A stretch of 23,879 nucleotides of DNA from Selaginella moellendorffii (taxonomy: Eukaryota; Plantae; Lycopodiophyta). Made by a program: the position numbers and the translations under genes. Where the stretch lies: assembly GCF_000143415.4 (NCBI RefSeq), contig NW_003314469.1:43619-67497 (forward strand). The letters run 5' to 3'. The notes beneath the pieces were generated by a model that was not told the DNA's origin, made no database searches, and saw nothing but the letters and a program-made list of their open reading frames with translations. Every line of letters starts with the position of its first letter. Position 1 is the first letter of the stretch. Below are positions 641 to 23,879 of the stretch, in pieces.

Positions 641-772
641 GTACATGTGACTGATCCCAAACTGGTGGAGGATTCTCATGGCCTTGAGATCTTCTCACTG
701 GTGATGGTACATGTGACTGATCCCAAACTGGTGGAGGATTCTCATGGGCTTGAGATCTTCTCACTGGTGATG
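641..772. repeat. 66-bp tandem duplication (2 copies), next to a degenerate 24-bp duplication at about 562-610
   Basis: gtacatgtgactgatcccaaactgg...cactggtgatg starts at 641 and 707, with one mismatch. Confidence 0.95.
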
Positions 773-833
773 CTGCTGCTGCTACTGCTGTCATTCCGAC
801 TCCAAATCTCCTCTCTCTCTCCAGCCACTGCTG

Positions 834-1135
834 TCATAGATCAGATAGCGATATGTAGTGGTGCTTAAATTTTGTATCCTGGATCCACATGAGAATGACG
901 TGATAGCAAAGAGCAAGACTTACCTGTAGCATTAAGTCGACTCTACCATTGGGACTTCTAGATAGCCTTTCTGTCACCATACTGCCGTAAAAAGCTGTGA
1001 CAAAACCATACCCCAACCGAAGAACTTCCTCTAGCTTTAATAGCAAAACTCACAAAGCACTATGTTTACCTGTATCCCAAGATATTCACTGACTTTCTCC
1101 AAAAAGAATAGATATCAGAGGTTCCACTCTGTAAT
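834..1135 (-). pseudogene. SGR2: DDHD-domain phospholipase A1 (SGR2-like) fragment
   Basis: Minus-strand peptides YRVEPLI, YGSMVTERLSRSPNGRVDLMLQ, then a 45-nt GT-AG intron (923-879), then DTKFKHHYIS. These resemble the DDHD motifs AYRVEPL and GRIDHMLQ-DKTFEH. Truncated and with stops. Confidence 0.7.
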
Positions 1136-1399
1136 CAAGACGAAAGGATAAATGTAAACACTGCTAAGAGAGTATTCCATCATGTCCTCGCCAGTTTTTT
1201 TGCACTTGACTGCCAACACTTCCTCAAGAGAACTTGTCATAAACTGAAGAGCACCATGTATGGCTGTCGCGTATGACTATCCATGTAGAGACTACAGGGT
1301 TTATAGCGCTGCAAAATAGAAATCCCTCTCAATGCTTTAAAAACGCAAAACTGAAGAACAAGGAAGCGAACCGTGGATGAAATTTTCTATTTTTTCTCT

Positions 1400-1592
1400 T
1401 GGTTCCAGCCTTGAGCACCTGGAACAAACAGGAACTTTAAGCCTCGAAAGAGAATAGCGAAGAGCAAGAGAGTGAAAAACCTTGATTCTAGTCGTGGTTC
1501 CAGCCTCGAGAACCTGGAACAAACAGGGACTTGAGAGACCGGAAAGAAGAATAGCGACAAGCAAGAGAGTGAAGAACCTTGATTCTAGTCGT
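1400..1592. repeat. About 96-bp diverged tandem duplication covering the PKL-like stop and 3' UTR
   Basis: tggttccagcc...ccttgattctagtcgt occurs from 1400 and from 1495. Confidence 0.9.
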
Positions 1593-2339
1593 CGATGACA
1601 ACGTGAATCCCCTCGTTGTCCGAGACGTCGTCCTTCTTGTAGCTCCATCCACCATAGCCTCTTCACCTTTCACTCCCAATCCTCGTCGCATTTCCGAGCA
1701 GAGCATGTCGATCTGCTGAATGCACCTGCGCAGGTGGATGCTGGTGGATTTGTTCCCCGCATAAGTCTGGAAGGTGTCGAGCCTGTTCTCGCTGATCATC
1801 GAGCACAACTATGGCGACACAGAGAAAGCCGTGAGCCTCTCAAACCTTTGCAAATGGAGAAACAAACACAACCTCATTGTAATAGGCTGGAGCTTTCAGC
1901 CGCTTAGGATCGTTATCCAGTGCCGTTCCCAGGACTTCTTCCGGAGCTGTCCAAAAATGAACGCGTTAGAGTTTTTTCTAGTGTCTAAATCTAAGGAACT
2001 CACTCAAAGGTGTTGGATAAGGAACAAATGTGGGTTGCGGCTTTTGGTAGGAGGTTTTGGTCCCTCGCCAGGCTCGATGCCACCGTTGCTGCAATTGGCT
2101 GGAATATCTTGGTCATCCTGGAACATCTCAAGTTAGAATCGCAGGGATGACGATAGGGGGGTCAAGACTCTTTTACCAGATGATATTCTGCGTTGAGTAC
2201 TTTTTTCCATAAGTGTGACTCGTTTCTTCACGAACTGGATAATTCTCCTGTTGAAGAACGCTTCAGCGTCAGTTAAATGATTGTCATTTTCCGGTGCATG
2301 AGCTTTTGAACCTGAGAATGAACCAACTGGTGGCATCAT
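1585..2339 (-). pseudogene. PKL: PICKLE/CHD3 chromatin remodeler C-terminal fragment, copy 1 (longest)
   Basis: RRIIQFVKKRVTLMEK resembles PKL RRLVEFVKKRVLLLEK. ALDNDPKRL...YYNE, an intron, then CSMISENRLDTFQTY resemble the PKL C-terminal DNDPDRL..LYNEMC region. Frameshifted; stop at 1587-1585. Confidence 0.75.
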
Positions 2340-2375
2340 GTACAGCTGACTGTAGCCTTCTAAATCATTCCATCA

Positions 2376-2416
2376 AACACACACATCAAACACACACACA
2401 CACACACTCACAGAGG

Positions 2417-2481
<65 letters not shown>
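2376..2481. repeat. Compound microsatellite: CA-rich tract plus (AG)30
   Basis: Read directly; the AG run spans 2422-2481. Confidence 0.97.
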
Positions 2482-2484
<3 letters not shown>

Positions 2485-5400
2485 CTTCCTGCTAGCGATG
2501 ATCGACGCTCTCTCCTCGTGCTAACGCGCCCTAAAAGACAATTGAAAGTTTTTATGATCCCAAAAGTCACGGCTCTCCATTGTTTAATCTCAGCCGTTAG
2601 ATTTTGGCATATGCCCAGAATAAGTGTCGTCAGTATATGCCATTATTATACGAGCTCTTTCGTTTAAATATATGAGTATGACTAGCAGAGACCCCAGCTC
2701 CGTTGGGAGATATAGCATACCCAAGATAAATAGATCTTCTTTTCTAATTTTATTGTATACAAGGTTAAATTTATCAGATGCATTATAATTTATTATCAGA
2801 TAAATGATAAATCAGAAATCATAGATGAATTCTCAATAAAAAATTTAGTTATAATTCCATTGTTGTGAATATTCAAGTGACAATAGAAATGATGACTAAC
2901 ATATATTATTCCCCCTTTCAATTATATTCTGAGACTCTCACTCGAGAAGCTCTCATATTCAAAGCTTGATTTTAGATCTTGATATAGTTTATCTCTGGGA
3001 GGTATAGCATACCCAAGATAGATAAATCTTATTTTTCTAGTCTTACAGTTTTAGAAATTTTTCTTGTATATAAAGTTAGATTTATCTAAAATTTTTTACT
3101 ATTCATCTCAAGGGAAATGCACAATAATTCAAAAAGATAATAATGCAAGTGTTGGGGAAGATAAGATCATTTTTTATCATCATTAAATTTAAATTTGATG
3201 TTTTTATTACCTTTATAACATGGTGCACAACCCTAAACAAATCTACAGAATTGCTGCCATGCTTGAAAAACAATTGAGTTTTCACAAAAACAAAGAATCA
3301 TAGACTACCAAAAAATTAATAGGTTAGTATGAGAAATTATAATTTTAACTGCATACTGAGTTAAATTCTTTTTATCTGAACTATAATAATGCCTCTAACA
3401 TTCATAGTTTACTAAAGAATAATAGAATTTCTATTATGTGTCTGGTTTTACATTTTAAAACATACATAAATATCTATCTAGTTTGCTACCACATTTATAT
3501 TAAACCTCATAAGCTGAATGGTTTAGATTCTAGATTCCAGAGCAAACTAATATTCTCTTTTATATTCATCCAAAGATAATAATTACATTAGAGATATAAT
3601 TTTGTATTAAGACAAATCTGTATTACTGCTTGATGATAAAATTATAAATTCATTTCTGATATAAGATGTGGTATCTAATATGGTATAAGATATCTCATAC
3701 ACATACAAATATCAAATCAATTTCTTAATAATATCTGAAAATTTAGCAAAGACTTTTATATTTTTATTTAATCTTCTTGCTCATAACCTACTTAAATCTA
3801 TCGTCAGCTTTATATGAGTTTTATCTTTTGTCTAAATATTGAAACAATGATTTATTTTCTATAGTTAAAACGTATGCTTTATATAAGTCTAGCAAATATA
3901 ACTCCACTGGCAGACATAAAAATAATATTTTTAAAATACTTATATGAGATTTTTTATAAAATAAAATTATTAATACATCTATAATGCAGAACATAATTTA
4001 ACATAGATCAAGAGTGTGTAAGAAATTTTGTAACTTATAATATAAAAGATAACTACTATGAAATTAAAATGATGAAGAGACAAAATACTTGAGAAGGAAA
4101 AACATAGAAGAAATTTTTACAAATAAGAATTAAAAATGTTAGAAAGAGATTTCTAAATGAACTTCTCATGAAAAAGAGTTTCAGGTTAAACATTAGTAGA
4201 ACAACTTCCAATTAAATATCTAGATTGTTAGGAATAAATTTGAAAATATTAAACTAAGATTTCTCAAGATTATATTTAGATGATATCATCCTAGAAGTTA
4301 TGATTATAAAAGCTTATAGATGTTATGACTTTGAAAGCTTTAATAAACTCTGCAACCTGCAACAATTTTATTCAAGATTGTGTCTAGCCAACGGATTTTA
4401 AATTATATAAACATAAAAATTTTAAAAATTTCAGTTTAAATATAAAATTGAAATTAATATAATAAAACTGAAATTATCTAAATTATAACATGATTATAAA
4501 CAATTAAAGATTATATTAAAGATTAATTTTGTAAGAAAAGCTAGATCTAGCACTTAAATAATAGTATTATTATATTTTGTACATGTTACTATATTCAATA
4601 TAGTGAAATTTTATTATCAATGCTGGGAGAAATAAAAATTAAGGATTAAAGTCCCAGCTACATTGAGAGTATTGTGTTTATTTCTAATGTCTTAGTAATT
4701 TAAAAGAGTTGTAATTTTAATTTTAATTTCAAAAATATTCAAAATGATAACATATATAGTTAAACATAATATAATATTTATATTAAAATTCAATTCTATA
4801 ATTGACCCTATCACCAGCACATATCATAACATAATAAATATAGCTCATAGCATTATATTACATATAAAATTTTAACTGCTGAATGAAGTTTTGGATATTT
4901 TATAAATGGAATAGCTTACAATGGAATCCCATGGGCAGATGAGTCATTTAGAGATTGAGGTTAGGTAATTAATTGTTCCTTTTATTTTTAAACTATATAA
5001 TTGATAACAAAAAGTATTATTACTTGATGATTTATTCAACACTATAATTTTTACTCTTACTAAAGTAAGTGTTAATTAATTACAATAAAATATATTTTAT
5101 AAATTTAAAATTATAGACATTGTTATGGAGTTTAGTTTTACATCACTTCAAACTGAAAATTTTTAATTGCATTAAATGTTTTACTTTTATGTGTTTTACT
5201 TTATTTGAACTTTTCATTTTTTACATATTTGACTTCAGTATTTGCTTTTTTGTCTAATTTTTATATTTATGCATTTTGAGTGTAATATGTAAATTTAGAC
5301 CTATTATATTATATATTAGAAGGAATCATTTTGTATATGTGTTATATAGAGAGGCTTTATAAAGCTTTAATAATTTAAGGCTTTATAAAATTGTTTTAAT

Positions 5401-6092
5401 AATTTTTTTATTGCTTTAATAAATTGCTTAATAATAACTTGCTTAATAATTGCTTTAATAATTTAAGGCTTTATAAAATTGTTATAATGGCTGAAATTTA
5501 TATAATGATAAATGTATGGTAAGGTTTGACTCTATACTGGGCTGCAGATTCGATTATTTACAACCCTTTTCTTTATGCTAGAACAATAATATATCAGAAA
5601 ATTCATGAATAGTATATCGATACATTTCATATATGTAAGTTTCAATTGATGATGAATGAAATAAATCTTAGAATATATCTTAGGCATGACAACTCAATGT
5701 ATTTAATTTCCGTTATATATTAATAAGTACCATTAGATTACTGATAGAAACTAAATTATTATACAGAAGAAGCAGCTAAAAATATTAAGTTATCTATTTT
5801 AAGTTAGAATATATCATATTGTTATATACACTATTTTCTTCATATTATACTTTAAAATATTTTTATGATTTCGAATTCTATGTTTTCCAAAAATTACACA
5901 TAATAAATTCTCTATAAGTACATAGTATGTTATTTTATTTTTATAGTATTTTTATATTTGTATTTGACATCCTCCCCATTCATAGTATTTATATTCATAC
6001 TTTTAAGAGTAACTAATGAAAAGTTAAAATATTATATTATATATCATTATCATTATTTCTGTATATAGTTTTATATTAAGATAATGCTAATA

Positions 6093-6436
6093 NNNNNNNN
6101 NNNNNNNNNNNNNNNNNNNNNNNNNNNNNNNNNNNNNNNNNNNNNNNNNNNNNNNNNNNNNNNNNNNNNNNNNNNNNNNNNNNNNNNNNNNNNNNNNNNN
6201 NNNNNNNNNNNNNNNNNNNNNNNNNNNNNNNNNNNNNNNNNNNNNNNNNNNNNNNNNNNNNNNNNNNNNNNNNNNNNNNNNNNNNNNNNNNNNNNNNNNN
6301 NNNNNNNNNNNNNNNNNNNNNNNNNNNNNNNNNNNNNNNNNNNNNNNNNNNNNNNNNNNNNNNNNNNNNNNNNNNNNNNNNNNNNNNNNNNNNNNNNNNN
6401 NNNNNNNNNNNNNNNNNNNNNNNNNNNNNNNNNNNN
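6093..6436. other. Assembly gap (344 N)
   Basis: Run of N. Confidence 1.
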
Positions 6437-7169
6437 GAGAAATAGATCTTCTTTTCAATTTTACAATGTCAGAAATTATGCTTGTAAACAATGTTAAATT
6501 TATCTTAATTTTGCTACTATTCATCTCCAGAGAAATGGACAATAATGCAATTAAATAATAATGCAAATTTTGGGGAATATAAGATCATTTTTTAATCATC
6601 ATTAAATTTGAATTTGAAATTTTTATTACCTTTTTATTAAAAATTTTATTTGAATTTGATTTTTTATTGCAAGTAGAATAGCTTTGGTAGGTGTTAGTTC
6701 TGTTTAGATCATCATGCAACGATGCTGTTTCTTATTGATAAGTATTTTTGGTTTTTTTTTCTGTTTTGTATTCAAGCAAACATAGCAATAGCACAATAGA
6801 ATAGAGATTCTTGTATGTGCAAGTCACTCTTTTTTTCTGTTTTACTGTTTTCTGCCTGCACGTTTCCTTTTGAATGTTTTAAGCGTTTTTAGGATTGTGA
6901 TCTAGAGCGACATATAGACTTTTTTGTTTTTTAGCTAATACCTTTACGAGAGAGAGCAAAACACTAAATAAAATCAAACACGGAAATCATTTCTATGCCC
7001 TGAGTTAATGTACAAATATCATGTACTGAATCAAACCAAGCTCATGGCTTCAAAGGTGTGTCTATAAACACGTACATACACAACAGTTGTCTTATTCCTT
7101 CAGAAATGGCTTTTTTAAAAACAGTTCATGGCTTTGTCTGTAAGAAAGTAGAGTAGGCTGCCATGTAGA

Positions 7170-7395
7170 GCTCCAATCCTTGTTCTCCACCACCTCAGCT
7201 GCCATGTACTTCGCTGTTGTGATATCTCCTAAAGGTGCTGATCACCACTTTCTCGCACATGTTTAGCTTGGAAAGAATGTTGTCGAGCTTGAGATCCTGG
7301 TGACCCACGCCTCTCAAATAAATCTATTTGAAAGTCTTTACCAGCTGCTTGATGATTCTGGCTGCTTTCTCCTCACCAATCTTCTTGCAAATATG
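7170..7395 (-). pseudogene. Ser/Thr protein kinase fragment (CAMK/CDPK-like, subdomains VI-VIII)
   Basis: EEKAARIIKQLVKTFK*IYLRGVGHQDLKLDNIL (degenerate HRDLK..NIL); after a frameshift, TAKYMAAEVV (YMAPEV). Contains an internal stop. Confidence 0.75.
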
Positions 7396-7432
7396 CTATA
7401 TTTAAAAGACCACATAATTATGGAATAACGCC

Positions 7433-7950
7433 TTAAGAAATGAAGGCAATATTTCCACCAATGAACGTAACCAATCGAGGAAAAATGCCCGTGCCCCGTC
7501 CAAAATGAGACTCAGACAACACTACAAAGTCGGCAAACTTTCCTTGCGTCAGCGACCCAACCAAATCTTCTAATGCAGCTGAATACACAGCCGAGGATGT
7601 GTACCTGTGAATCCAAAAACACGAACTGCATTTCAGTTTTGTCATCTGTTTTCTCTTACCCTGCCACTGCGTCCCATGCAGAAATCCTTTCCTCGGGAAT
7701 CCAGGGATGACTCCAGCCCGAAGGTGTTCTCTCCATGGCAGTGCAGATCCCTCCAACTGGATTCACGGCTACCACCTTGAGACAAACCATTCACGTAACG
7801 CCAAAGAAAAAGTAATTGACAGGCTTACAGGCCAGTCGGATCCTAACCACGCTACCGTTTTCGAGGGACCAGAGGTTATAAGATCCGCATGAGTGCCTTC
7901 TAACCAAATTTCTTCACGGCGTAGTAAGCATCATCTAGAAGTTGCTCTGG
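7433..7950 (-). pseudogene. LAF3: Amidohydrolase_3 family (LAF3-like) C-terminal three-exon fragment
   Basis: Exons PEQLLDDAYYAVKKFG*...LGSDWP | VNPVGGICTAMERTPSGWSHPWIPEERIS | YTSSAVYSAALEDLVGSLTQGKFADFVVLS, with GSDWP and GSL.PGK.ADFV.LS-type motifs. Confidence 0.8.
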
Positions 7951-8026
7951 CTGTACAAAAATATAGGGTTTTGCAATGGAGGCAAAATGCAGGTCTACTG
8001 GTCGATGCGCACAATGCATGGTTTCT

Positions 8027-9551
8027 TCAGATTCCTCTCTGCTCGGTTTGGCCTTTACTACGGCCTTTTGGACGTCCTGTGGTTTCCTTCTGTGATGTTT
8101 TCCTTCCTGGCGTTAGAGAGTAACTGAGGATCAAACGAAACAAACCTCGCCATGTAAGATAGCACTGCCTGAGCAAAGCCAGGCTTGTACGAGAAGAGCA
8201 GCCCATGGAAGAGCTTCCCATCGATGGAGGCTTCTAGTTGAATACGTCGCTTACTCTAGCCTTGAACATCTTCTCGCCTAGTGGCTGAACGTGAGCTTGA
8301 AACTCTGTAGCATGAGTTTGACAGGGAAATATTGGAGAGGTCCAAGGTTTTCCACAGATACCTCCGTGAGATGAAACCAAGCTCTTGTCCGCATCCCGTT
8401 GCTTGTCTAGCATGAATGGCGTGGCACGATACTCTTGCTGCCTTCTCTTAAGTTCCTTACGCATGGATAGCTTTGGTTCTGATGGATCTTTCTCCCTCAG
8501 CATCTCTTCACAGAAAAACGGCAACCATATTGTCAAGAATGGCAGCAATGTCAATAAAAGAAGAAGCCAACCTGTGTCGAGGAAATACATGTCATCCAGA
8601 GCTTCAAGCTCTTCGTTACATCCCCCATAGAAGAATAATATGCCTCGCTCTGCGTTCACAGAATCTCCTGCAAGGGAGAAACGTGGAGAAGGCCCGGGAC
8701 CAGAGGGATTCGAAGTCGCCCAAACACCAGTCGCTACAAAATACATAAAAGCCCCATGAGAGACCAACAGGAAACAAATCTACCTACAAGCGCACGTACT
8801 TAAGTCAAGAGTATGGACGTCATTGAATAGCTTGCGATCATCGGAGAATCCTCCAAACACGACAAGATACTTTCCATGGCTGATTGTTGTGTGCCCGGCT
8901 CTTGGCATCAGCTCGGCACCAGTCGTCTTTACCTCCGCCATGCCATTGTTTCTGGAAACGCAAATGAATTCGCAAGTTTAAAACCAGCACAATGTATGTA
9001 CCTGTGTCCAGAATATGAACATCGTTTAGATAGGCATTACCACCGTCCTCGCCACCCATGACAACGAAACAGTTCTTAAGGTATGGCTATCCCGAGAAAT
9101 AGGCGAGACTCCAGTGGTAGAAATCTTCTTCCAGACAAAAGTATCTACAGGGAAAAAAAAAGTTTAGAAGAAAACAAGGAAAGTTAACAGAATATTACTC
9201 GTGTTCAAAACATGGAGGTCGTTGTAGTACTCCTCCTCTGAGGGATCGCTGGATTTCCCACTTCTTCCAAACATGAACAGGTTGTCACCGATGAGAGACG
9301 TGCTATGTCCTTCTCTCAAAGCAGGAACATCACCGAAGTGTTGGTAGCTGCATCGGATGATAAGAACAAGAAAAAAAAATCGATAGAACTCGGAGCTTAC
9401 CAGTATCCAAAACAAAGAGTATGATTGAGCGGGCTGGTTCCATCGGTACCACCAAACACATGGAGCTTAGACCCGACGGCCATTGAGCTGTGGCTGTCTC
9501 GAGGAGAAGGGTGCGTTCCTTTCATCACAGGCTTGCTCCAGGTGTACATCC
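8027..9551 (-). pseudogene. Multi-exon kelch-repeat (galactose oxidase/kelch superfamily) gene, 5'-truncated, copy 1
   Basis: Kelch motifs PSPRDSHS, VFGG, GGEDGGNAYLNDVHILDT and PRAGHT with short GT-AG introns. Starts at an intron acceptor. Deletions near 8237, 9078 and 9337 relative to copy 2. Confidence 0.85.
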
Positions 9552-9588
9552 CTGCGCGATCCCACCAGAAGAGTGAAGAACCTTGATT

Positions 9589-10259
9589 CTAGTCGTCGAT
9601 GACAACGTGAATCCCCTCGTTGTCCGAGACGTTGTCCCTGTCATGAGCTCCATCCACCATAGCCTGTTCGCCTTTCACTCCCAATCCTCGTCACATTTCC
9701 GAGCAGAGCACGTCGATCTGTCAAATGCACCTGCGCAGGCGGATGCCAGCGATTTTTTTCCCAGCGTAAGTCTGGAAGGCATCAAGCCTGTTCTCGCTGA
9801 CCATCGAGCACAACTATGGCAACACAGAGAAAGCCGTGAGCCTCTCAAACCTTTGCAAATGGAGAAACAAACACAACCTCGTTGTAATAGGCTGGGACTT
9901 TCAGCCGCTTAGGATCGTTATCCAGTGCCGTTCCCAGGACTTCTTCCGGAGCTGTCTAAAAATGAATGCGTTACAGTTTTTTCTAGTGTCTAAATCGAAG
10001 GAACTCACTCAAAGGTGTTGGATAAGGAACAAATGTAGGTTGCGGCTTTTGGTAGGAGTTTTTTTGGTCCCTCACCAGGCTCGACACCGCCGTTGCTGCA
10101 ATTGGCCGGAATATCTTGGTCATCCTGGAACATCTCAAGTTAGAATCGCAGGGACGACGATAGGGGGGTCGAGACTCTTTTACCAGATGATATTCTCAGT
10201 TGAGTACTTTTGCCATAAGTGTGACTCTTTTCTTCACGAACTCGGTAATTCTACGAACT
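9589..10259 (-). pseudogene. PKL: PICKLE/CHD3 C-terminal fragment, copy 2
   Basis: Close match to 1585-2243; RRITEFVKKRVTLM; in-frame stops. Confidence 0.75.
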
Positions 10260-11527
10260 CTACAAACAGAGACAAATCCCTTCCTAGGGTTAGAAATAGG
10301 ATAAATGAAACGTACCATCTACATATCAATCTGCAAAGCATACTTAAGCAAAGCATTCCCTCCCAGTCGATGGAGCGGTTGCAAATCTAGAATTGAAACA
10401 GTACCTCCCATATTGCCATCTTGGCCGTCTATATCAATCGTCACAGATTTGGACAGTCAGATTAATAGTATCTACCATAAGTAAAAATGGATATTCTTAA
10501 AATAGAATATGTGACGCCGATGCCAAAATAGCAACTTTAAATAAAGAGTTTGACTAGCTGGGATCCCAGCTCCGCTGAGAGAAGTACAAAATATTTTGGG
10601 CACATTGAATTTTTAAGCATTTTAGCGTCAAGAGTAAGCATTTTAATATTAATTTTAAAATAATCAGTTGAAAGTTATAGTTGTAAGCTCTAGAAAGAAA
10701 GGCTTTGTAATTAATCAAAACTGGCTTCTTTTATTTTACAAGTTTTGTGCTTGAAATGAAAGCAAATGCCTTTCTAAATTCATCATCCTAGAGATGGAAC
10801 ATATGATATCCATAATTAAAAGTTACAACATCTACTTGAAATCTTGATATCAAGGGAGGGTGTTCTAGCATAACCCACTTGGTTTTAAATCAAAGGAAGA
10901 TAAAAACAGAAGTGTTCAAAGGCTTGCTTTTTATTCTAGATTTCCTGTCCAAGTTTTAACCAGTGAAGTTCTACAGAATCTTAGATTTTTTCAGTGACTT
11001 ACTGTAAAGTGGCAAGAAGAAATTGAAGAGAGGTGGTGGAAGTTTAATGAGGACCCAAGCAGCTTTATTCTACTCAACATGGATATTGAGTTCAGAGTCA
11101 TTGCCTTTGGAACACATCAAAGTCAGCCTGGGGGTTCTACTTGCAGAGGAACTTCTTGCATGCTCTCTTTTGATCACAAAGCATTTGATGTTAAGAAACT
11201 GCTAAAAGAGAAAAAGAAATGCAAAATCTAAGACATAATAGTGTTAGGCCATAAAATATAACTTTTTGACCAAAGCAATGCTGATAAGTGAGATCTGTGA
11301 ATTTTAGTTTCCTGTTGTGCATACTTGAAAATTTGAGAGTTAAGAAATCCAGATTATTATAATGCAAGAAAGAGCCAGACCATATAAAGTGAAAAAGAGT
11401 TGGACTTTTGTAAATCTTTGACGAAGGCAACACAGATACATGAGACCTGGTGACTCTTTAATTTTCAAACCCGCAGGGAGAACAGAGGTAAGATTCCTTC
11501 CAAACCATGAAGAAAAATCACAAATGC

Positions 11528-12140
11528 ATGGCTTGCACTCTCCTGCTCTTGCTTTTGGTTGTGCCTGCCATTGTTTTTCTAGCCCGCCATCACCAACACC
11601 GTTCAGCCAAACAAAACCCAACAAGCAAAGAAGCTCTGGAAGTGTGGGACGAAGTCTCCAAGCTCTCACAGCATGATCTTAAGTGTCTGGCACTCTTCAT
11701 CTCCCCACTCACCACAATCTCCACCAAAACCTATGGATGCCTGCCTCCATCCCCAGCTGGAAGCCATCCCCAAACTTCCAACACTTGAGCCCTCCTCAGA
11801 CTCCAAAGCTTGGGGTCCAGTGTACAAGGAAGACACCACCTCCGCTAACAAACACCTTATGGTTGTGTTCCGGGGCACCTCCACCCAGGCAAACACATGT
11901 GTCAATTGGATCCTGTTTGGAGAGCTACCAAGGACGTCACTTACAAGTCTGAGCTCTTGCCTCTCCACCTATTCCAACCAGACCTCGACTACATCTCCCA
12001 CAATGTGAGCTACACACACCAAGTTGTGGAGGTGTGTCCAAACGCATCGCTTCTACTCATTGGTGCCAGACTCACAGTTCTCATCTAGGCATCGCTCGAT
12101 GGACTTGCTGCTGTTGTTGCTGTCAGCAGCCTGGGAGCTG
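11528..12140 (+). pseudogene. Probable class-3 lipase (ATG15-like) fragment, opposite in orientation to the element
   Basis: Hydrophobic N-terminus MACTLLLLLLVVPAIVFLA, then LMVVFRGT, then VCPNASLLLIG...ASLDGLAAVVA (degenerate GxSLGG). Spread over several frames. Confidence 0.45.
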
Positions 12141-12423
12141 GAGGCTCGCTGCAGTTGTGGTCCTTTCAGCTCTCTTACAAGATGAATCGTAATATGGCTG
12201 TGATTGGAAACGGGTGGGATTCCGTGTTCACGGTGTCATGGGTTTCCCCATGTCATTAAATTCCCCGTATTCCTTTTACAAAAAAATAACTGAAACAATA
12301 GGGCTTACCATCGTGTTAATTCCTAGAACACACGTTTTTCAATTTTTTTTACACCAATTCATACACTTCCTGTCACCCTCAGAATAGATCTTGGATCCTT
12401 ACAAGTTGTTTAGTGGTGATCCG

Positions 12424-12864
12424 TCATGAGAAGGGAAGAAGGAAATAAATAAGATGACCCCTAAGTGATCCAGAGAATTTACTAAACGATGTGTTCTGTA
12501 AGATCTTGAGATTCGAGAGAGTTACGCAAGAATCCAACGCCGAGATGAGTGTCAGCTTGTCCGATTTCACTCCCTGGAGTTGCATATGAATGAATACTCT
12601 GGCAGCCGAGCGATCGTCGTCACAGCAAGAGAAAGAGGACAGCAGCCCATTCCAAAGAAGAGCACTGTAGCCACCGGAAGAGAAAGAGACTTGATCAAAA
12701 GCTTGTCTCACTTCGTCCAGGCTTCCACAGGCCCTGTATGCGTTCATAAGAGCTCTCCCCAAGACCTTGTCGATCTCCACGCCACTATCTCTCACAGCTT
12801 CGTGGATCACTCTCGTCTGATCCAGTCTCCAGCAAGCATCTAGCATTGTCACAAAGGTCGCCAT
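12424..12864 (-). pseudogene. PLS-class pentatricopeptide repeat (PPR) fragment
   Basis: ATFVTMLDAC, ALMNAYRACGSLDEVRQAFD, WNGLLSSF and MQLQGVKSDKLTLISALDSC; only 2-3 motifs, no E/DYW domain. Confidence 0.88.
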
Positions 12865-13541
12865 AAAGATGAATTCAAGCTTGCTGAACTTCTTTTTATT
12901 ATACAGCCTTCATGTAAAATTAGATCACATGTTTTCCTCTTTCTTTTGCCACCCATTGATCTATAGGAGATTTTACAATCTCTTTTAGAAATAGAAGCTT
13001 AGACAGCGTGTGCAGGCTCTAGATGGTGATAATAAGTAAATAGACAAATAGCCAGACCACAAGAAAATAGAAGCACACTGAATGTTGCCCTTAGGACTTT
13101 CTAATTATCTCTCAGAGAACACAGAAACAAAATTACCTCTTGACAAATGCATAAGGCAACCTAATTGTGTAGTTCTTTTTTCTATGATTCGAAACAGTTT
13201 TTCTTAACCTACGTGTCTATTAGTTACACTCTCAAAAAGCCTTTGACAGTAAAGAGGTTTACCACAGCTTTTTAAGGTAATATTGTGACATTGTAATAAT
13301 CTTTTCTAATATTGTGATAAGTGATTAGAGGAAATAACATCCCCTTCAACCACGACATCAGAAATGTGAACTTTGCAATTTGTTTGATTCTAACATACAG
13401 TTGCCATCATAGTCCCATAAACTAAATGTGCCCAGAGGCAATGTGATCCCAGAGCCAGCCAACGCAGATCCTAGGCTCTGCCCTTGATGCTCATGGCAAT
13501 CCGCTGCAATTGGAGGGAAAAGAGAAAAAACTCAGTTAAAA

Positions 13542-13927
13542 CTGGATCTTACAAGTACAAAACAAAACAAAGAAAAATGCTACCTGTACACTGGTTTGGA
13601 GAGCTTGATCAACGTATTTTAGTGGTTGTTTCTCCATTTGAAGAGTTCCCCTGCAGGATAAAAGTTTATTGCTAAGCAAACATGAGTCGCAATCTGCAAG
13701 GAAAAGGTCAATTTAGAAAGCAAGATCAATCCCCTGGATCTTACAAGTACAAAACAAAAAAAAGAGAAAATGCTACCTGTACACTGGTTTGGAGAGCTTG
13801 ATCAACGAATTTTAGTGGTTGTTTCTCCATTTGAAGAGTTCCCCTGCAGGATAAAAGTTTATTGCTAAGCAAACATGAGTCACAATCTGCAAGGAAAAAG
13901 TCAATTTAGAAAGCAAGATCAATCCCC
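13542..13927. repeat. About 192-bp tandem duplication containing a small minus-strand exon-like segment
   Basis: ctggatcttacaagtac...caagatcaatcccc starts at 13542 and 13734; the copies are near-identical. Confidence 0.95.
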
Positions 13928-14079
13928 GAATCTCTCTTTCAGCACATGCGCAATTAACCTGTTCAAAAGATCAGTGCAAGTTTTAAGTCAGAAATATCAC
14001 ATTGTTTCTGCTGATTATGACGCTCTTATCCGTGCTCTTCATGGCAAAATACTGGCAGGAACCTTTCAACTCTACTAAA

Positions 14080-15356
14080 TGTACACTTGCATCACAAAAA
14101 GGCTTTTTCATCCCATATATAAGAAACGACTATGAAAAAACTCACCTTCCTGTGTTACCACAACCAAGAGATTTGACAGGCCGAAAATGGTGGAGTCAGT
14201 TTCTCGCCACTAGTTTGAATCTGCATTTAAAACAAGCAAGAAAACTGGAGAAGTCATCAGACTAAACATGCGCTCATGAATCTTTCTAATAGCATCCCAA
14301 GAGTTTAGATAAACGACTTTAGAGTGTTTAGCCCGAAGGTTGTTGGTTGTCTGGACACGAGCAAAAGAAAAAAAATTCTTGAACTCCCAAACAGCCCTCT
14401 GTTACTCGCTCCTGCACAACAAGAATCAAGTTAGCCACAGAGATCAAGAGAAATGAGAGATCATGCTAAAACCTAGATCCATATGCATGCTGGGAATCTT
14501 GTTGCAAGCCCTTGGCGTGACAGGATGAGAGATCCAGGAGCACCAGGCAGTCTCTTTGTTGCTTGATCATATATGAGCTGCCCAAGCACGTACTCCTTGT
14601 TGTACATAATAAGAGGCAGTAAAATATGCACATGTAAAGAAGCACTGAGAATATGCATACATCTGAAGCAGGTCTGCAGCTGCATCATGTCTTGACAACA
14701 CTGTCACCTCCAAACCTCGCCGCATATCTCTGGCCTAAAGAAATCGTCAACAAGAACAACACAAGAAAGAGAAAACGTACCATAAAATTCACAGTCTCTT
14801 GATCTTCCAAAGTCATATCAAACAATGACATGACCACTGAGTGGGTATAAATATTTTTCCTTTGACAAGACTGTATGACACACACAACATGGCGAACAGG
14901 AGGGATTGTACACTTGCATCACAAAGAGGCTTTTTAATCCCATAAATAAGAAACGACTATGAAAAAACTCACCTTCCTGTGTCACCAAAATCAAGAGATT
15001 TGACAGGCTGAAAATGGTGGAGTCAGTTTCTCGCCACTAATTTGAATCTGCATTTAAAACAAACAAGAAAACTGGAGAAGTCATTAGACTAAACATAGGC
15101 TTATGAACCTTTCTAATAGCATCCTGAGAGTTTAGATAAACGACTTTAGAGTGTTTAGCCCAAAGGTCATTGGTTGTCTGGACACAAGCAAAAGAAAAAA
15201 AATCTTGAACTCCCAACAGCCCTCTGTTACTTGCTCCTGCGCAACAAAAACCAAGTTAGCATTAGAGATCAAGAGAAATGAGAGATCAGCCATACGCATG
15301 CTGGGAATCTTGTCGCAAGCCCTTGGTGTGACAGGGTGAGAAATCCGGGAGCATCA
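14080..15356. repeat. About 450-bp direct duplication (about 14080-14545 and 14908-15356) around unidentified exon-like sequence
   Basis: Both copies run from tgtacacttgcatcacaa to ...gcaagcccttgg.gtgacagg.tgaga.atcc.ggagca. Confidence 0.92.
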
Positions 15357-15503
15357 GCCAGTGGGGAAGTCATCACGGAGCTGGAGATTGTGTTCTTCAG
15401 ACTGTCCGCCATTGACCTGTGCATCTGTTGCGAATGGCAATGAACAATCAACAATCCAGCCTTTTGCAAAGGGTACGCACACTCCTGCTGCTGTGTTCAC
15501 CAC

Positions 15504-15505
<2 letters not shown>

Positions 15506-15585
<80 letters not shown>
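15506..15585. repeat. (GA)40 microsatellite
   Basis: Read directly. Confidence 0.98.
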
Positions 15586-15589
<4 letters not shown>

Positions 15590-15835
15590 AGCTTACAATC
15601 TGCCTGAGTCCTAAAAGATTCACTTGATTTGGAGGGTCATTCAATTCAAAGTTGAAGCGTTGCCACCCCTTTGGCACTTGATCTATGCCATCTATTTGAA
15701 GTTTTTGAATTTGAGCTGTTAGATTATAAGTATATTCAGAAATAATATTCTAAAAATGGAATAAAAGATGCCGGATGCCATATGCCAATAGCATGTTTAA
15801 ATAAGGGGGTACTATCAGAGACCCCAGCTCCGCTG

Positions 15836-16743
15836 GGAAATATAGCATACCTAAAATAAATACATCTTCTATTTTAATTTTACAATGTTAGAAATTTTGA
15901 TTGTATACAAGGTTAAATTTATCTTAATTTTGCTACTCTTCACCTCTAAAGAAATGCAGAACAATGCAAATAGATAAAAAATGCAAGTTTTGGAAAACAT
16001 AATATCATTTTTTCATCATCACTAAATTTAAATTTGAATTTTTTTATTGCCTTTATAAAAAGATACAAAAACCTAAACATGTCTACAAGATTGATGCCAT
16101 GATTTAAAATCAATTGATTTTTCACAAAACCAAAGAATTATATACTGCCAAAAAAAAAGGTTTGGGGAAATTATTTTTTGATTACATACTAAGCTTTTTT
16201 TTTTATTTATCTGAACTATAATGCTGCCTTTAACTTTCATAGTCTAATAAAGAACAAAAGAATTTCTATTATGTGTCTTGATTTATATTTACAAATAAAC
16301 ATAAGTAAATCTATCTAGATATTCACACTACATTAGAGGTGTTTGAAAAGAGGTACATCCAAAGATAATAATTATATTAGAGATATAATTGTATTAAGAC
16401 AAATCTCTACTAATGCTTTATAACAAAACTATACATTCCAATTTATAAAAACATTACTATTGAATGATTACACACTACTTACTCTTCAGCAATTATATAA
16501 AGAAGAATATGATTGCAGATTAATATATTATATAAAAATATTAATGTTTTAAATATAAACATGGAGATAACATTAATATGTACATATTAAAATTAATTTT
16601 TTAATCTATTTGCATTATTGTGCATTTCTTTAGAGGTGAAGAGTAGCAAAATTAAGATAAATTTAACCTTGTATACAATTAAAATTTCTAACATTGTAAA
16701 ATTAGAAAAGAAGATGTATTTATCTTAGGTATGCTATATCTCC
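15836..16743. repeat. About 147-bp inverted repeat (15836-15982 and 16596-16743)
   Basis: The reverse complement of 16596-16743 matches the 3'-subterminal sequence of D with few mismatches. Confidence 0.93.
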
Positions 16744-16872
16744 TACTTTTAATTTTACCTGGATATTTAATTTTGCTATTTCTTTTTCCTTTAACTCTTC
16801 ATCCTTGATGTGCTAAAAGTTTTTCTGAAAACCTTATTATTGTAAATAACTCTTCCAGAGAGTAATTGCAAG

Positions 16873-16875
<3 letters not shown>

Positions 16876-16921
<46 letters not shown>

Positions 16922-16988
16922 GTTCTCATTTTGTTTTATTATTATCATGGGATAATAAAAGTTTTATTATTATCATGGGATAATAAAA
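16876..16988. repeat. (TA)n microsatellite followed by a 28-bp tandem duplication
   Basis: TA run 16876-16919; gttttattattatcatgggataataaaa at 16933 and 16961. Confidence 0.95.
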
Positions 16989-18906
16989 TAGTGCTTATTA
17001 TTGACATTATTACTATTTTCTGAACACTATAATGGTGAATGATATAATGGATTTTCTTTGCTTACCAGAATTAAATCTGTATTGTCATAGAAGTGTTAGA
17101 ATGTCATTATGTGTGACAAATTTCCATTTTTTATTACTGCTCTAATCCCAATTTCCAATGCATGCCATTAATATTACTGCATTAGTAATAGAACTATTCA
17201 GTATCTACATTATCAATAATTAAAAAGCTGTATTATTTGAATTTATCTGGATTATTGTGATATTTTTTAATATCATCATTTAAATTAATCAGGGGAGGAC
17301 CCTAGCATAAATTCTAACTTTTTTTTTTCTTAAACCTATCTGCTATTTGTAAGATATGTTGTTTCTCCTTTTTCTCAATCTATTTTTAATTTTTATCGTG
17401 CTCATTGAATAGCCCACCACTTGATAAGACTTAACACCCAAGGAACTTCATGTGCTTGGATGTACCAGCAAGGACTCCTTAGCTTATGGAACTGCAGAAG
17501 GTAGCTCAATTTTTTCTTTCATATCCAAGAAGAAGCTAGCAAAGCTTTTTCTTGTAGTTTCTTAAGTCTTCAAGAGTAGTGTTTTCTACAAAAATAATGA
17601 TATTTTTGAGATATCCATAAGAATTGCATGTTTGGAATATATACATCACCAAAGATTTCTCTAAATAACAGAAAACAAATTACTTTCCAATATAAATACT
17701 ACTATGTTTTTCATAAGATTAGCAACCTTCCTTATTCTTTCTTGCTTCAAATGCCAAATCCATTATATGTTTTTTCTCTAAAATCCTTCTTTAGGCCAAC
17801 TATCAACTTCTTATTTTTCTACTTACTACAAGGTCTCATCTTTTCACATTTGCAATAATGTGTTAGCTTGGACTATTGAAATAGGAGATTGTGATCTTAG
17901 GATACCATTATTTGCACGAATTTATGATGTTAGTTTTTGCAGCAGTGGATTGTAACACATTTGTTAAGGACCCTTTCATAATAAGATTGAAATGGTGACC
18001 TTTGTGGCCCAAACTCATGTTTCTATGCTCCCTGCCACCACAAGCCATTCTAAGGAGGCTCCTGAATCTAGTGTCAAGCAATGCAACTGATGTTAGATCT
18101 CTTCCTCTTGCAAGGATATGTGTCTGTCTGGGTATTCGCAAAGGTGATGAATCCAATTCTATTCTTCTTCCACATTTTGTCTTGGGTGATTCATTATTTG
18201 CTTTCATTGTTTGAGAGTGAAGTGGCAAGAGACTGACTTTTTTTTATGAAATCTCTGCTTGTGTAATTCTGTCTTTGTAAGCATTGTTTTGTAGTCAAGC
18301 AAAGCCACAAAGGCTACAACAGGCAGTACAATGTACTCCTATTTAACTATTTATTAGAACAAGAAAATATCATACTACACCTTACTATTTCTCATTCCCT
18401 AGACATTCCTCAGATGCTGCTCATAGAATTCCAGAAGCTGTAACTTGACTCCATAAAACATGAAAGAAGCAGTGAAAAAGTACCTTTCATAGTTTAAAGG
18501 TTTTTTCTCATTATTGAAAGATATCCAGAGGAGGTTAACACTTCAGAGCCTCACAAGCGCCTCATAAATTGCCCTTAAAGAGATGGTGTTCAGTTCTATG
18601 GTTCTTTAAGAATACCTACCAGTTTGACTCTGTCTTGAACATGTCGTCATTAGGTCCATTGGAGAAAAGGGTAACCATAAATGCAGAGTTTTTATAAATA
18701 GTGTTTCCTTCGAAATACAGAAGCGACAGAGATGAATTAGAACAGTGGAGGACATAGCATATCATCTAGTATGAGGTACAATTCAGTAGAATACTTTTTT
18801 CTTTTTTAATTACAGAAGTTTTGAAACTCTTACAGAATAGTCTGGATGTGGCCTAAAGAAGAAATTTTGTATGAAGGAAAGTTTGTATGAAATTGGAAAT
18901 GTTTAT

Positions 18907-19332
18907 CTTCACTTTCTCAAGCACATCATGGATTTTTCTTTAGGAAATCAGCCACATGATGACATGAGCTGTTGAGTTGTGACCAGCGTTCATGTACATG
19001 TTGAGCATGTCTATGATATGAGCGTCTTCCAGCACCTCTTTTTTGTCATCCAGCTGATCCATGAGCAACGAAAGAATGCTTGCTTCCTGCGGGTTTCCAG
19101 AAGCGCTGGTTGATCACGTCCTGGATAAGCTTGATGAGCTTTTGCCTCGGCCTGAAAATGAGAAAACGTCACAAAGCTATGTACAACGCATATGGCTTTG
19201 TTGTAGGCAGTGCCGAGGAAGTTGATGGGGAGAGCCTGAATGCCTTGGTTGACAATGTAGTAGAAGGAGAAAGTCTCTTCCATGTCAAGACTGGAGTCTT
19301 TCCCATATAAAATGTAGAGGACAGTTAGAAAC
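18907..19332 (-). pseudogene. CYP88: Cytochrome P450 internal fragment, CYP88/ent-kaurenoic acid oxidase-like
   Basis: VNQGIQALPINFLGTAYNKA, an intron, then RQKLIKLIQDVINQR...LEDAHIIDMLNMYMNAGHNSTAHVIMW, which resembles the CYP88 I-helix IIDVLLMYLNAGHESSGH..MW. Frameshifted; no heme-binding motif. Confidence 0.78.
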
Positions 19333-19334
19333 GT

Positions 19335-20816
19335 TTCCTCCTGTGATGTTTTCCTTCCTGGCGTTAGAGAGTAACTGAGGATCAAACAAAACAAATCTCG
19401 CCATGTAAGATTGCACTGCCTGAGCAAAGCCAGGCTTGTATGAGAAGAGCAGCCCATGGAAAAGCTTCCCATTGATGGACGCTTCTAACGTGTATCCGTA
19501 GTTGAATATGTCGCTTACTTTAGCCTCGAACATCTTCTCGCCTAGCGGCTGAACATGAGCTTGAAACTATGTAGCATGAGTTTGACAGGGAAAATTGGAG
19601 AGATCCAAGTTTTTCTGCAGATACCTCCGTGAGATGAAACCAAGCTCTTGTCTGCATCCCGTTGCTTGTCTAGCACGAATGGCGTGGCATGATACTCTTG
19701 CCGCCTTCTCTTAAGTTCCTTACGCATGGATAGCTTTGGTTCTGATGGATCTTTCTCCCTCAGCATCTCTTCACAGAAAAACGGCAACCATATTGTCAAG
19801 AATGGCAGCAATGTCAATAAAAGAAGAAGCCAACCTGTGCCGAGAAAATACATATCATCCAGAGCTTCAAGCTCTTCGTTACATCCCCCATAGAAGAATC
19901 ATATGCCTCGCTCTGCGTCCACGGAATCTCCTGCAAGGGAGAAACGTGGAGAAGGCCCGGGACCAGAGGGATTCGAAGCTGCCCAAACACCAGTCGCTAC
20001 AAAATACGTAAAAGCCCCATGAGAGACTCACGTACTTAAGTCGAGAGTATGGACGTCATTGAATAGCTTGTGATCATAGGAGAATCCTCCAAACACGACG
20101 AGATACTTTCCATGGCTGATTGTTGTGTGCCCGGCTCTTAGCATTAGCTCCGCACCAGTCGTCTTTACCTCCCGCCATGCCATTGTTTCTGGAAACGCAA
20201 ATGAATTCGCAAGTTTAAAACCAGCACCATGTATGTACCTGTGTCCAGAATATAAACATCGTTTAGATAGGCATTACCACCGTCCTCGCCACCCATGACA
20301 ACGAAACAGTTCTTATAGAAAGAGCAGGTATGGCTATCCTGAGGAATAGGCAAGACTCCAGTGGTAGAAATCTTCTTCCAGACAAAAGTATCTACAGGAA
20401 AAAAAAAAAGTTTAGAAGAAAACCAGGAAAGATAACAGGATATTACTCGTGTTCAAAACATGGAGGTCGTTGTAGTACTCCTCCTCTGAGGGATCGCTGG
20501 ATTTCCCACATCCCCCAAACACAAACAGGTTGTCACCAATGAGAGACGCGCTATGTCCTTCTCTCGAAGCAGGAACATCACCAAAAACGTCGGGTTTCCC
20601 CTAGGTGGTGGTAGCTGCATCAGATGGTAAGAACAAGAAAAAAAATTGATAGAACTCGAAGCTTACCAGTATCCAAAACAAAGAGATCGTTGAGCAGGCT
20701 GGTTCCATTGGTACCACCAAACACATAGAGCTTAGACCCGACGGCCGTTGAGCTGTGGCTGTCTCGAGGAGAAGGGTGCGTTCCTTTCATCACAGGCTTG
20801 CTCCAGGTGTACGTCC
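19335..20816 (-). pseudogene. Kelch-repeat gene, copy 2
   Basis: Paralogous to 8085-9551. Keeps the segments deleted in copy 1 but has a TAG at about 20602-20604 where W is expected, a shortened intron near 20027 and a truncated 3' end. Confidence 0.85.
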
Positions 20817-20853
20817 CTGCGCGATCCCACCAGAAGAGTGAAGAACCTTGATT

Positions 20854-21525
20854 CTAGTCGTCGATGACAACGTGAATCCCCTTGTTGTCCGAGACGTTGT
20901 CCCTGTCGTGAGCTCCATCCACCATAGCCTCTTCGCCTTTCACTCCCAATCCTTGTCGCATTTCTGAGCAGAGCACGTCGATCTGTCGAATGCACCTGCG
21001 CACGCGGATGCCGGCGCTTTTTTTTTCCAGCGTAAATCTGGAAGGTGTCGAGCCTGTTCTCGCTGATCATCGAGCACAACTATGATGACACAGAGAAAGC
21101 CGTGAGCCTCTCAAACCTTTGCAAACGGAGAAACAAACACAACCTCGTTGTAATAGGCTGGGACTTTCAGCCGCTTAGGATCGTTATCCAGTGCCGTTCC
21201 CAGGACTTCTTCCGGAGCTGTTCAAAAACGAACGCATTAGAGTTTTTTCTAGTGTCTAAATCGAAGGAACTCACTCAAAGGTGTTGCATAAGGAACAAAT
21301 GTAGGTTGCGGCTTTTGGTAGGAGGTTTTTTGGTCCCTCGCCAGGCTCGACACCACCGTTGCTGCAATTGGCCGGAATATCTTGGTCATCCTGGAACATC
21401 TCAAGTTAGAATCGCAGGGACGACAAAAGGGGGGTGGAGACTCTTTTACCAGATGATATTCTCTGTTGAATACTTTTTCCATAAGTGTGACTCTTTTCTT
21501 CACGAACTCGGTAATTCTACGAACT
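20854..21525 (-). pseudogene. PKL: PICKLE/CHD3 C-terminal fragment, copy 3
   Basis: RRITEFVKKRVTLMEKVFNREY; near-identical to copy 2. Confidence 0.75.
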
Positions 21526-21821
21526 CTACAAACAGAGACAAATCCCTTCCTAGGGTTAGAAATAGGATAAATGAAACGTACCATCTACATATCAATCTGC
21601 AAAGCATACTTAAGCAAAGCATTCCCTCCCAGTCGATGGAGCGGTTGCAAATCTAGAATTGAAACAGTACCTCCCATATTGCCATCTTGGCCGTCTATAT
21701 CAATTGTCACAGATTTGGACAGTCAGATTAATAGTATCTACCATAAGTAAAATTGAATATTCTTAAAATGGAATATGGACGCCGATGCCAAAATAGCAAC
21801 TTTAAATAAAGAGTTTGATGA

Positions 21822-23879
21822 CTAGCAAAAGTCCCAGCTACGCTGGGAGCATTGTCTTTATTTTGGATATTTTAATAATTTCAAAGAGTTGTAAGTGTAA
21901 TTGTAATTTTAACATAATCATAATTATAAGATATATAGTTAAACATAACATAATCTTTATATTAAAAATCTCTTCTACAATTGATTCTATCACCAACACA
22001 CATCATAACATAAAAAATATAACTCAGTACATTGTATCATATTTAAAATTCTGATTGTTGAGTGAAGTCTTGGATATTCGATAAATGGAATTTCTCGATG
22101 AGTCATTTGTTTAATAACTAATTTTTTCTTTTATTTGAAATCTCTATATAATTGATAAAATATTATTATTTGATGATTTATTAAACTCTATAATTTTTCC
22201 TCCTAATAAAGTATGTGTTACTTAACTACACTCAAATATAATTATGTTAAAAATATGTTTATTATATATTTAAAAACTCAGCTAAAGTGTATACATATTT
22301 TAAATTAAAAAAATATAAACATTATTATGGAGTTTCTCTTTTCATCATTTCAGACTGAAAGTTTTGGAATTGCATGATAATAAGTGAAAGATGTTAGCTT
22401 TATGTGTTATATTTTCTTTTATAAAATTATAATATTTTACATATTTATCATTGATATTCCATTTTTACCTAATATTTATATTCATGCATTTTGAGAGTAA
22501 TATTTAAAATAGAGAGTATTCTATTATATATCATAAACATTATTTCTGTAGTTATTTTTATAAATCTGAAATAAGATTATTATCTCCCTATATTCTTGTA
22601 TTTATATTTAAAATTAAGGCTTTATAACACTGTTATGAATGCTGAAATTTTATGATGATAAATGAATGGTAATGTTTTACTCTATACTGGGGTAGAGGAG
22701 GGTTTGATGATATATAAACTTTTCTTTATGCTAGAACTATAATATATCAAAAAATTCATGAATGGTAGGTTTGATATAATATAATTAAATTTATTTATAT
22801 GGTCCATGTACTAATGTTGTCTCAATCATATTTATACCTTATTAAGTTTTTCATGTATAAATGCAATGTAGGATAAAGTGGTAGAAAATTTATGATATTA
22901 TATAAATCTTTGGCTACATCTTAGCCAATTGACATCTCAATATGTTTAATTTCATTTATATTTATATTAATAAATAACATAAGATTACTAATAAGAAAAT
23001 ATTTTAATAATAAGAGATAAATAATAAGAGGTAGGTAGTGCTAGGAATTGCAAGAGTGAGAGGAGGGTTGTCATGGTCAGGAGCAAATCAACACCAAGAA
23101 AGCTAGGGTGAAGATCAGGTGTGGCTTTCCTTTGCAGTTAATAGAGTACGAATTGATCCATGAAGAATTGGATGAAGAATTGCTGTAGATTAGACTTTAT
23201 AGAATAAAAGTAATATTAGTCTATGGAAAAATTGTTATTAGTATTTGAAAAGACCAGTTTGACATAAAAGGATCAAAATCATCATGTTCCAACTGTCATG
23301 CATGCAAAGTGTTCCATCAAAGAAGCAACAGGCTGCTGAGGACTACCTTGTCCAACTCTTTGCAGCCATCAATTTATGTGCCCTTCATAGCAAAAGAGTC
23401 ACAATAAGTCAGTATTCAAATAACACACACAAAAAGATTATAGAATTTATCAGCCAGCTTGAAAATTATACATTTAGGCTGTCGGCTTAGAGGAACCTTG
23501 GAGCATTTCATTTGGTACTACATTTCTTTTTCTTGCAAGTTCACTTAGAGTTTACCATGCAGCTTATACTTATTGATTAGAATCCTCAATTTTTCTTAGA
23601 AAATTGCTGCTACTTTCAGGCATAAATCGCTGTTAATTTCAGGCATCCTCAACCACATATTTTTTGGGAAATTAAATTTAGTATCAGCACAAAATCTGAC
23701 CTGGAAAGAGATGTAATTAAAAGTAAAAGTAAAATAAACATACTTTTACTAATAAGAAAATATTTTACACAACAGATATTTAGATCTATTAACTCCTCTA
23801 TTTTAAGTTATAAAATATCATATTTTTATAGAAAATATTTTATTTATATTGTAATTTAGATATTTTATTTTTTATTTAT
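21822..23879 (-). mobile_element. 3' part of Helitron-like element E (continues beyond the window)
   Basis: CTAG at 21825-21822 and hairpin tcccagc-tac-gctggga (21832-21848). The AT-rich body is homologous to about 4648-5830. Confidence 0.75.
23073..23500 (+). pseudogene. CENH3: Histone H3-family fragment, most like centromeric CENH3
   Basis: MVRSKSTPRK at 23073; AG/GT-bounded exon 23332-23407 encoding AAEDYLVQLFAAINLCALHSKRVTI; then CRLRG near 23480. AAEDYLV and these intron positions fit plant CENH3 better than canonical H3 (AAEAYLV). The central histone fold is missing. Confidence 0.68.

Follow-up and report, generated by a model that had tools for sequence, protein, structure and literature searches.

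A Helitron-like element of Selaginella moellendorffii that probably split the 5' terminus of its neighbor three bases from the end

The DNA analyzed here, referred to as the window, is a stretch of 23,879 nucleotides of Selaginella moellendorffii (contig NW_003314469.1, positions 43,619 to 67,497 of the forward strand), and its main subject is Element D, a Helitron-like element of 6007 bp lying within the 5' terminus of another, Element C. Along its minus strand, the window is a chain of five or more non-autonomous Helitron-like units, which follow each other in the order E, D, C, B, and A. The PPR gene fragment captured in C is 92% identical to a Selaginella moellendorffii protein (2 matches among 518 candidates). 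In window coordinates, the features are:

1–2681, minus strand: Element A, with an intact start, TCATACTC, directly after the CTAG of unit B; 1566–2246 is common to B and D (92%).
2682–10553, minus strand: unit B, with a D-family 5' part, an assembly gap (6093–6436), an E-like segment (4648–5863), and a D-type 3' end at 2682.
10554–15811, minus strand: Element C, which starts with TACCCCC (its first three bases being absent), ends with a hairpin-like motif and CTAG (10557–10554), and carries the PPR gene fragment at 12427–12909.
15812–21818, minus strand: Element D, 6007 bp, a non-autonomous Helitron-like element that begins with TCAAACTC and ends with a hairpin and ATAG; no RepHel domain was found in the frames scanned.
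15812–15837, minus strand: 3' terminus of D, with a 6-bp GC stem and a 3-nt loop (15837–15823), a 7-nt spacer, and ATAG rather than CTAG (fold of -6.0 kcal/mol).
16589–16743, plus strand: inverted copy of the subterminal 155 bp of D, truncated at the terminal hairpin's first arm.
20031–20853, minus strand: kelch-repeat gene fragments captured in D (three of its frames match Pfam PF24681, with E values between 5.9e-16 and 1.1e-10), with a counterpart in B at 8237–9466.
21778–21818, minus strand: 5' terminus of D, about 41 nt identical to the start of B at 10553.
21819–21821, minus strand: an orphan TCA, the putative first three bases of C, stranded upstream of D, as judged from a register test and from C-family contigs beginning with TCATAC.
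21822–23879, minus strand: 3' part of Element E, with a hairpin (21847–21833) and CTAG (21825–21822); its 5' end lies beyond the window.

No 3' end of Element A was found within the window. At every visible joint of the chain, a GC-rich hairpin-like motif leads into CTAG (ATAG in D), which is followed by a start of the form TCA[A/T]AC..TTTAAA. All four visible joints are exact to the base, unite unlike elements in the same orientation, and fall either at the very beginning of a 5' terminus (+0) or three bases inside it (+3), although the window holds 2,240 AT sites. The identity between B and D is 92.7% across 2.5 kb of the 5' part and 84.5% across 200 bp near the 3' end, and C has only its ends in common with them. 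The cargo carried across the units consists of kelch, PPR, and weaker amidohydrolase and SET-domain fragments.

Taken individually, the units are ordinary non-autonomous Helitron-like elements. Canonical Helitrons (HLE1) are characterized by a 5' TC, a 3' hairpin, a terminal CTAG, insertion between A and T (A^T) without duplication, and captured gene fragments (PMC13286980). D and B start with TCAAAC, and the families of A and C with TCATAC. The hairpin of D (15837–15823) lies 11 nt from the end, as does that of E; the 3' stems of B and C are weaker and mismatched and were missed by a strict hairpin scan. With respect to the 3' CTRR, B, C, E, and the family of D end with CTAG, and D itself with ATAG. 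D is flanked on the minus strand by A (21819) and T (15811), without target duplication. The window elements therefore resemble canonical plant Helitrons in the 5' TC, the hairpin 11 nt before CTAG, the A^T site, the lack of duplication, and the gene capture, and differ from them in the ATAG end of D, in the base-exact chain, and in that no RepHel was seen in the frames scanned. The Pfam scan of the 73 stop-to-stop frames of at least 70 amino acids revealed no Helitron or PIF1 family in the 68 searched, five with microsatellites having been left out. Metagenome contigs and prokaryote genomes contained no exact match to terminus patterns of 23 and 26 nt, as one would expect if the repeat belongs to a plant.

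An earlier note, made from the window letters alone, had proposed that D interrupts the 5' terminus of C, and its reading of the junctions was confirmed base by base. On the 5' side of D, the minus strand (21825–21811) reads CTAG-TCA-TCAAACTC, whereas the same end at 10557–10546 reads CTAG-TCAAACTC, without TCA. On the 3' side, it reads ATAG-TACCCCC (15815–15805), and the start said to be collinear with the restored C is indeed present at 2685–2674 as CTAG-TCATACTC. Each of these four junction strings occurs once in the window. Removing 15812–21818, as the note had done, gives CTAG-TCA-TAC with zero bases gained or lost. Over 20 terminal positions, the start of C matches that of A at 16 when TCA is restored and at 4 as it stands, with TTTAAA at position 14 both in A and in the restored C; when C was compared with A at offsets 0–6, only offset 3 aligned (13/17, the others giving 3–8). 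The insertion site of D is the first of 371 AT dinucleotides in the restored C. The exact junctions, the lack of duplication, and the family-typical ends support a precise A^T insertion 3 nt from the nick site, and we consider it very likely that D inserted at +3 of C.

A plain rolling-circle concatemer was also considered and rejected. Simple concatemer replication would give identical units joined CTAG-TC, not the bases of another element beyond D; the window units differ in ends and cargo, and three bases of a different element lie on the far side of D, so the note's exclusion of this origin stands. It is hardly credible that the arrangement is an assembly artefact or the product of an independent 3-nt duplication and 3-nt deletion in such a concatemer. 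The window does contain a gap of Ns and many repeats, and TCA is also the first triplet of D, but a pair of errors separated by 6 kb would need to compensate each other exactly, the units differ in sequence, and both +3 joints and the ATAG end occur in the independent contigs described next.

These contigs come from four sequencing runs that contained 0.23–0.28 of the words of 12400–22300; X1, X2, and X3 represent one sample and X4 another, and three further runs (X5–X7), with next to none of the words, were not used. The counts given below refer to the rows listed, that is, 15 of the 45 contig joints at 15600–22400 and, for the stretch 15752–15864 (to which 95, 114, and 6 contigs aligned), 15 of the 33 loose-end rows and 22 of the 216 pieces. 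A contig is not equivalent to a locus: several may stem from the same locus or from a single composite that was copied whole. Depth did not serve as a measure of copy number, other than in choosing rough upper values for a null estimate. Because the rows are a partial set and contigs drop variants, window junctions missing among them were not taken as proof of a polymorphic insertion.

The D family is dispersed and multi-copy, with loose ends carrying mixed flanks exactly at 15811 on both sides and 2,746–3,799 contigs aligned in X1 and X2. Many fixed differences were seen along D in the contigs, which suggests that the runs hold relatives of D rather than an exact copy of the window element. 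In one contig, found in X1 and X3, 21818 is joined back to the 3' region of D (15836), head-to-tail, with the minus strand reading ATAG-TCAAACTC. This junction gives both D-family ends independently and thereby fixes the boundaries that had been assigned to D. Nothing in the contigs examined indicated that D-family copies routinely begin otherwise, TCAAACTC being present both in this junction and after the 3' end at 10553. The usual 3' end of the family is CTAG: the change 15815 T>G is carried by 18, 11, 7, and 6 contigs, which account for almost the whole depth. That the ATAG of D might be a private sequencing error was rejected, as it is also present in the contig of X1 and X3. The ATAG end is thus seen in two contexts, before TAC in the window and before TCAAACTC in that contig, and the variant may still work as a terminus.

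For C, the contigs that leave the window sequence at 15811 continue with TGAT on the plus strand, the equivalent of host A-TCATAC (3 in X1 and 5 in X2); therefore, the C family starts with TCA, and nothing in the contigs examined upheld the ground that the note had named for rejecting its reading, namely that relatives of C start without TCA. The pooled flank consensus behind 15811 begins with TGATGAG in X1 and X2 (being pooled, it gives no count), and TCA may also stand in front of one or more C-type copies, a hint of a TCA^T target preference.

The +3 junction was also found outside the window. An E-type 3' end sits on a C-type start at TAC in two contigs of X1, one of X2, and one of X4, and hence in both samples; compared with the window, the joint records differ by 6 letters and 4 gaps in X1, 7 and 7 in X2, and 5 and 0 in X4. 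A D-type 3' end is followed by an A-type start minus TCA in three contigs of X1 (agreement 0.99) and two of X2, and in one contig of X1, a D-type end runs into TACGGGA and then C-like sequence, a third start variant. With the D-C joint of the window, four partner combinations share the same +3 base, and the three additional ones back the targeting idea of the earlier note. Among the junction contigs listed, +3 accounts for 2 of 5 in X1 and 1 of 6 in X2 on the C side and for 4 of 8 in X1 on the D side, fractions that unlisted rows may shift. Two items were not counted: an X4 group before 15811 (2 contigs, agreement 0.89), in which a D-type +0 joint seems to be mixed with a different flank, and X4 record 19 (33 nt, depth 2). 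No +3 joint on a D-type (TCAAAC) start was seen among the contig rows listed. As a rough null, the AT frequency of the window gives 0.0005–0.2 +3 joints per genome by chance, with a genome size of 106 Mb and an assumed 100–2,000 termini and insertions. The independence of the +3 joints is judged by their partner differences, the far ends of the contig joints being out of view. The observation is real, correctly read, and more general than one junction.

We regard it as rather probable that D entered the 5' end of C at the A^T located three bases in and that such insertions recur because the transposase targets resident 5' termini. A RepHel transposase supplied in trans is predicted to bind resident termini (TCA[A/T]AC..TTTAAA) as it does those of donors and to cut one strand at A^T, the incoming element then being joined in the same orientation. 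Cutting at host A^TC (+0) would produce a CTAG-TC head-to-tail joint of unlike elements and regenerate a fresh A^TC in front, so that arrays would lengthen on their 5' side. TCATAC starts have a second A^T, at +3, that would also be used; TCAAAC starts have none. The simplest order that uses A^T only would place D into C at +3 and E in front at +0, in either sequence (with E first, the +0 A^T would be removed by E). For comparison, Helraiser cleaves just before its 5' TC, the determinants of this cleavage lying within the terminal 40 bp, prefers AT targets with an AT-rich 3' flank (PMC4778049), and forms and cleaves end-to-end circle junctions (PMC5876387).

The +3 insertions could also have arisen without terminus recognition, through a general preference for A^T sites that are AT-rich and lie in chromatin dense in Helitrons; one or two old joints would then have spread as composites and been reshuffled by recombination. 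Helraiser does prefer AT-rich 3' flanks (PMC4778049), and 13 and 16 of the 20 nt after +3 are A or T; maize Helitrons are cited, second-hand, as inserting near others (PMC12477314, PMC3288121), and the internal E-like end of B indicates that composites do form. We nevertheless find this explanation decidedly unlikely in view of the four different 3'/5' partner combinations at one base and of the joints in the window, all at +0 or +3 despite the many AT sites available. Moreover, D- and E-type ends share only about six terminal bases at the joint, probably too few for partner swaps by recombination.

Another possible history, which we hold to be unlikely, follows a different order: the locus was already E-CTAG-TAC-C, and D entered the G^T joint later with a TCA leader (from an earlier +3 insertion or a 3-nt slippage), so that TCA would not be this C's own. 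E-type joints to TAC-C without TCA do occur in each of the two samples, and an empty site with TCA is not among the joints listed; in addition, Helraiser can cut G^T end junctions with precision in vitro (PMC5876387), and Fusarium Helitrons move with doubled 5' termini (PMC5148889). However, this order requires a non-AT target, found in 46 of 1,751 Helraiser insertions and then mostly as TT, AC, or AA (PMC4778049), as well as a leader matching the missing bases. The E-TAC contigs differ from the C of the window by 5–7 letters in about 60, some with gaps, compared with 3 in a deep family contig, and because of this greater divergence they look like paralogues. Even then, a TCA leader would still imply +3 targeting elsewhere.

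A third alternative confines insertion to the window and derives the CTAG-TAC joints elsewhere from elements nicked at +3, which would start with TAC and circularize. Aberrant Helraiser circle junctions are common, about half before DpnI selection (PMC5876387), and the unseen far ends of the contig joints leave room for such an origin. Against this, no loose-end group with host A-TAC was present among the rows listed, where the pooled consensus reads TGAT, and the enzyme would still have to nick TCA^TAC. Donor nicking of this kind is thus quite improbable.

Several points weigh against recurrent insertion of unlike elements at +3 of resident termini, or against parts of it. TCA is the first triplet of D as well, so the window sequence by itself is compatible with a 3-nt duplication. 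The loose-end consensus of the C family is pooled (agreement 0.70 and 0.61), and a minority of C starts without TCA is possible. Uninterrupted TCATAC starts of the C family were seen, but the D-less E-TCATAC empty site, predicted as a joint skipping 6,007 bases, is not among the 15 of 45 joints listed. One listed joint skips 6,010 bases and corresponds to E-CTAG-TAC without TCA; most simply, it represents another element at +3 at another locus, although under a different history it would also be an empty site. No contig crosses the window's own C/D junction at high identity among the 22 of 216 pieces listed. X1–X3 are one sample, and composites copied as units may inflate the recurrence. For Helraiser, 701 re-insertions showed no clustering near donor sites (PMC4778049). 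Finally, no transposase was found in the window frames scanned, and terminus specificity is a prediction.

Insertion next to or slightly within a second Helitron's 5' end is known from maize and Fusarium, anecdotally; what is new here is a fixed, recurrent +3 site across families. At maize r1, Du et al. (2008) described one head-to-tail pair of unlike Helitrons and favored consecutive insertion, one option for the second target being an AT composed of the host A and the 5' T of the resident (PMC2267711). The maize pair shares with the window a CTAG-TC joint between different elements, and differs in being a single pair, at +0 only, with no claim of recurrence or targeting in the portion of the text used. 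In Fusarium, one FoHeli insertion lies 2 bp from the 5' end of another copy, and doubled starts of 31–85 nt are ascribed to self-insertion (PMC5148889, PMC13342296). FoHeli elements thus also insert close to the 5' end of another copy, but they are fungal, with non-canonical Helitron2-type ends and variable offsets, whereas the window elements have canonical ends and a +3 offset fixed across families. Multiple termini in maize have been attributed to nesting (PMC3288121), and preferential insertion near other Helitrons is cited second-hand (PMC12477314, PMC3288121). Paramecium Helitrons are comparable in their proposed sequence-directed, fixed-orientation insertion, in telomeric repeats, and differ in that the target is a host repeat and not their own terminus (PMC13085455). 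The literature searched, which covered few subscription papers and no supplements (tables of nested or adjacent elements there may hold +3 cases), yielded no description of a site within Helitron 5' termini that is both recurrent and base-exact, and no study of Selaginella Helitron arrays.

Genomic CTAG-TC joints have been taken as evidence of rolling-circle concatemers or, alternatively, of consecutive insertions, two origins that a +0 joint does not distinguish. Xiong et al. in 2016 reportedly described tandem Helitron arrays formed by rolling-circle amplification, with truncated repeats, many 5' ends, and one 3' end; from this second-hand account, the window resembles those arrays in polarity and differs in that its units are unlike, keep both ends, and include one that splits another. 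A +3 joint can separate the two origins because a split terminus records a true insertion, and a fixed +3 site makes the question countable on public assemblies. Whether a lycophyte Helitron superfamily targets itself at +0 and +3, many head-to-tail arrays being serial 5' additions of unlike elements rather than concatemers and supplying composites for multi-gene chimeric Helitrons, we judge to be evenly balanced. Recurrence, if true, would provide a sequence-level cause for the reported tendency of plant Helitrons to insert near each other, and a way in which multiple termini could arise and genes could be captured step by step. Genome engineers, too, would take an interest in a Helitron that lands at a defined 20-bp site without duplicating its target.

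Among the remaining features, unit B is a composite with a dead internal terminus: at 4648–5863 it holds an internal copy of the 3' region of E (70–82%) with a decayed hairpin and no CTAG, followed by the D-type end. Its gap of 344 Ns (6093–6436) opens 46 nt before an expected D-type 3' end, and B may be two elements with their junction inside the gap, where a fifth joint may be hidden. Additional copies of the D-type subterminal region, at 16589–16743 (inverted, 92%) and 2996–3045 (direct, 86%), both end within the first hairpin arm, and in a contig copy that ends with ATAG, 9 nt of the hairpin are missing; breaks or template switches may recur at the terminal hairpin. E contains a histone-fold fragment (23263–23487, plus strand; Pfam PF00125, E value 1.5e-6). 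C has internal duplications at 13542–13927 and 14080–15362, a 193-bp tandem pair (97%) and a 472-bp pair (89%), around a weak SET-domain-protein fragment. Both TCATAC-type elements, A (2420–2481) and C (15510–15586), carry a long (TC)n tract about 200–230 bp inside the 5' end.

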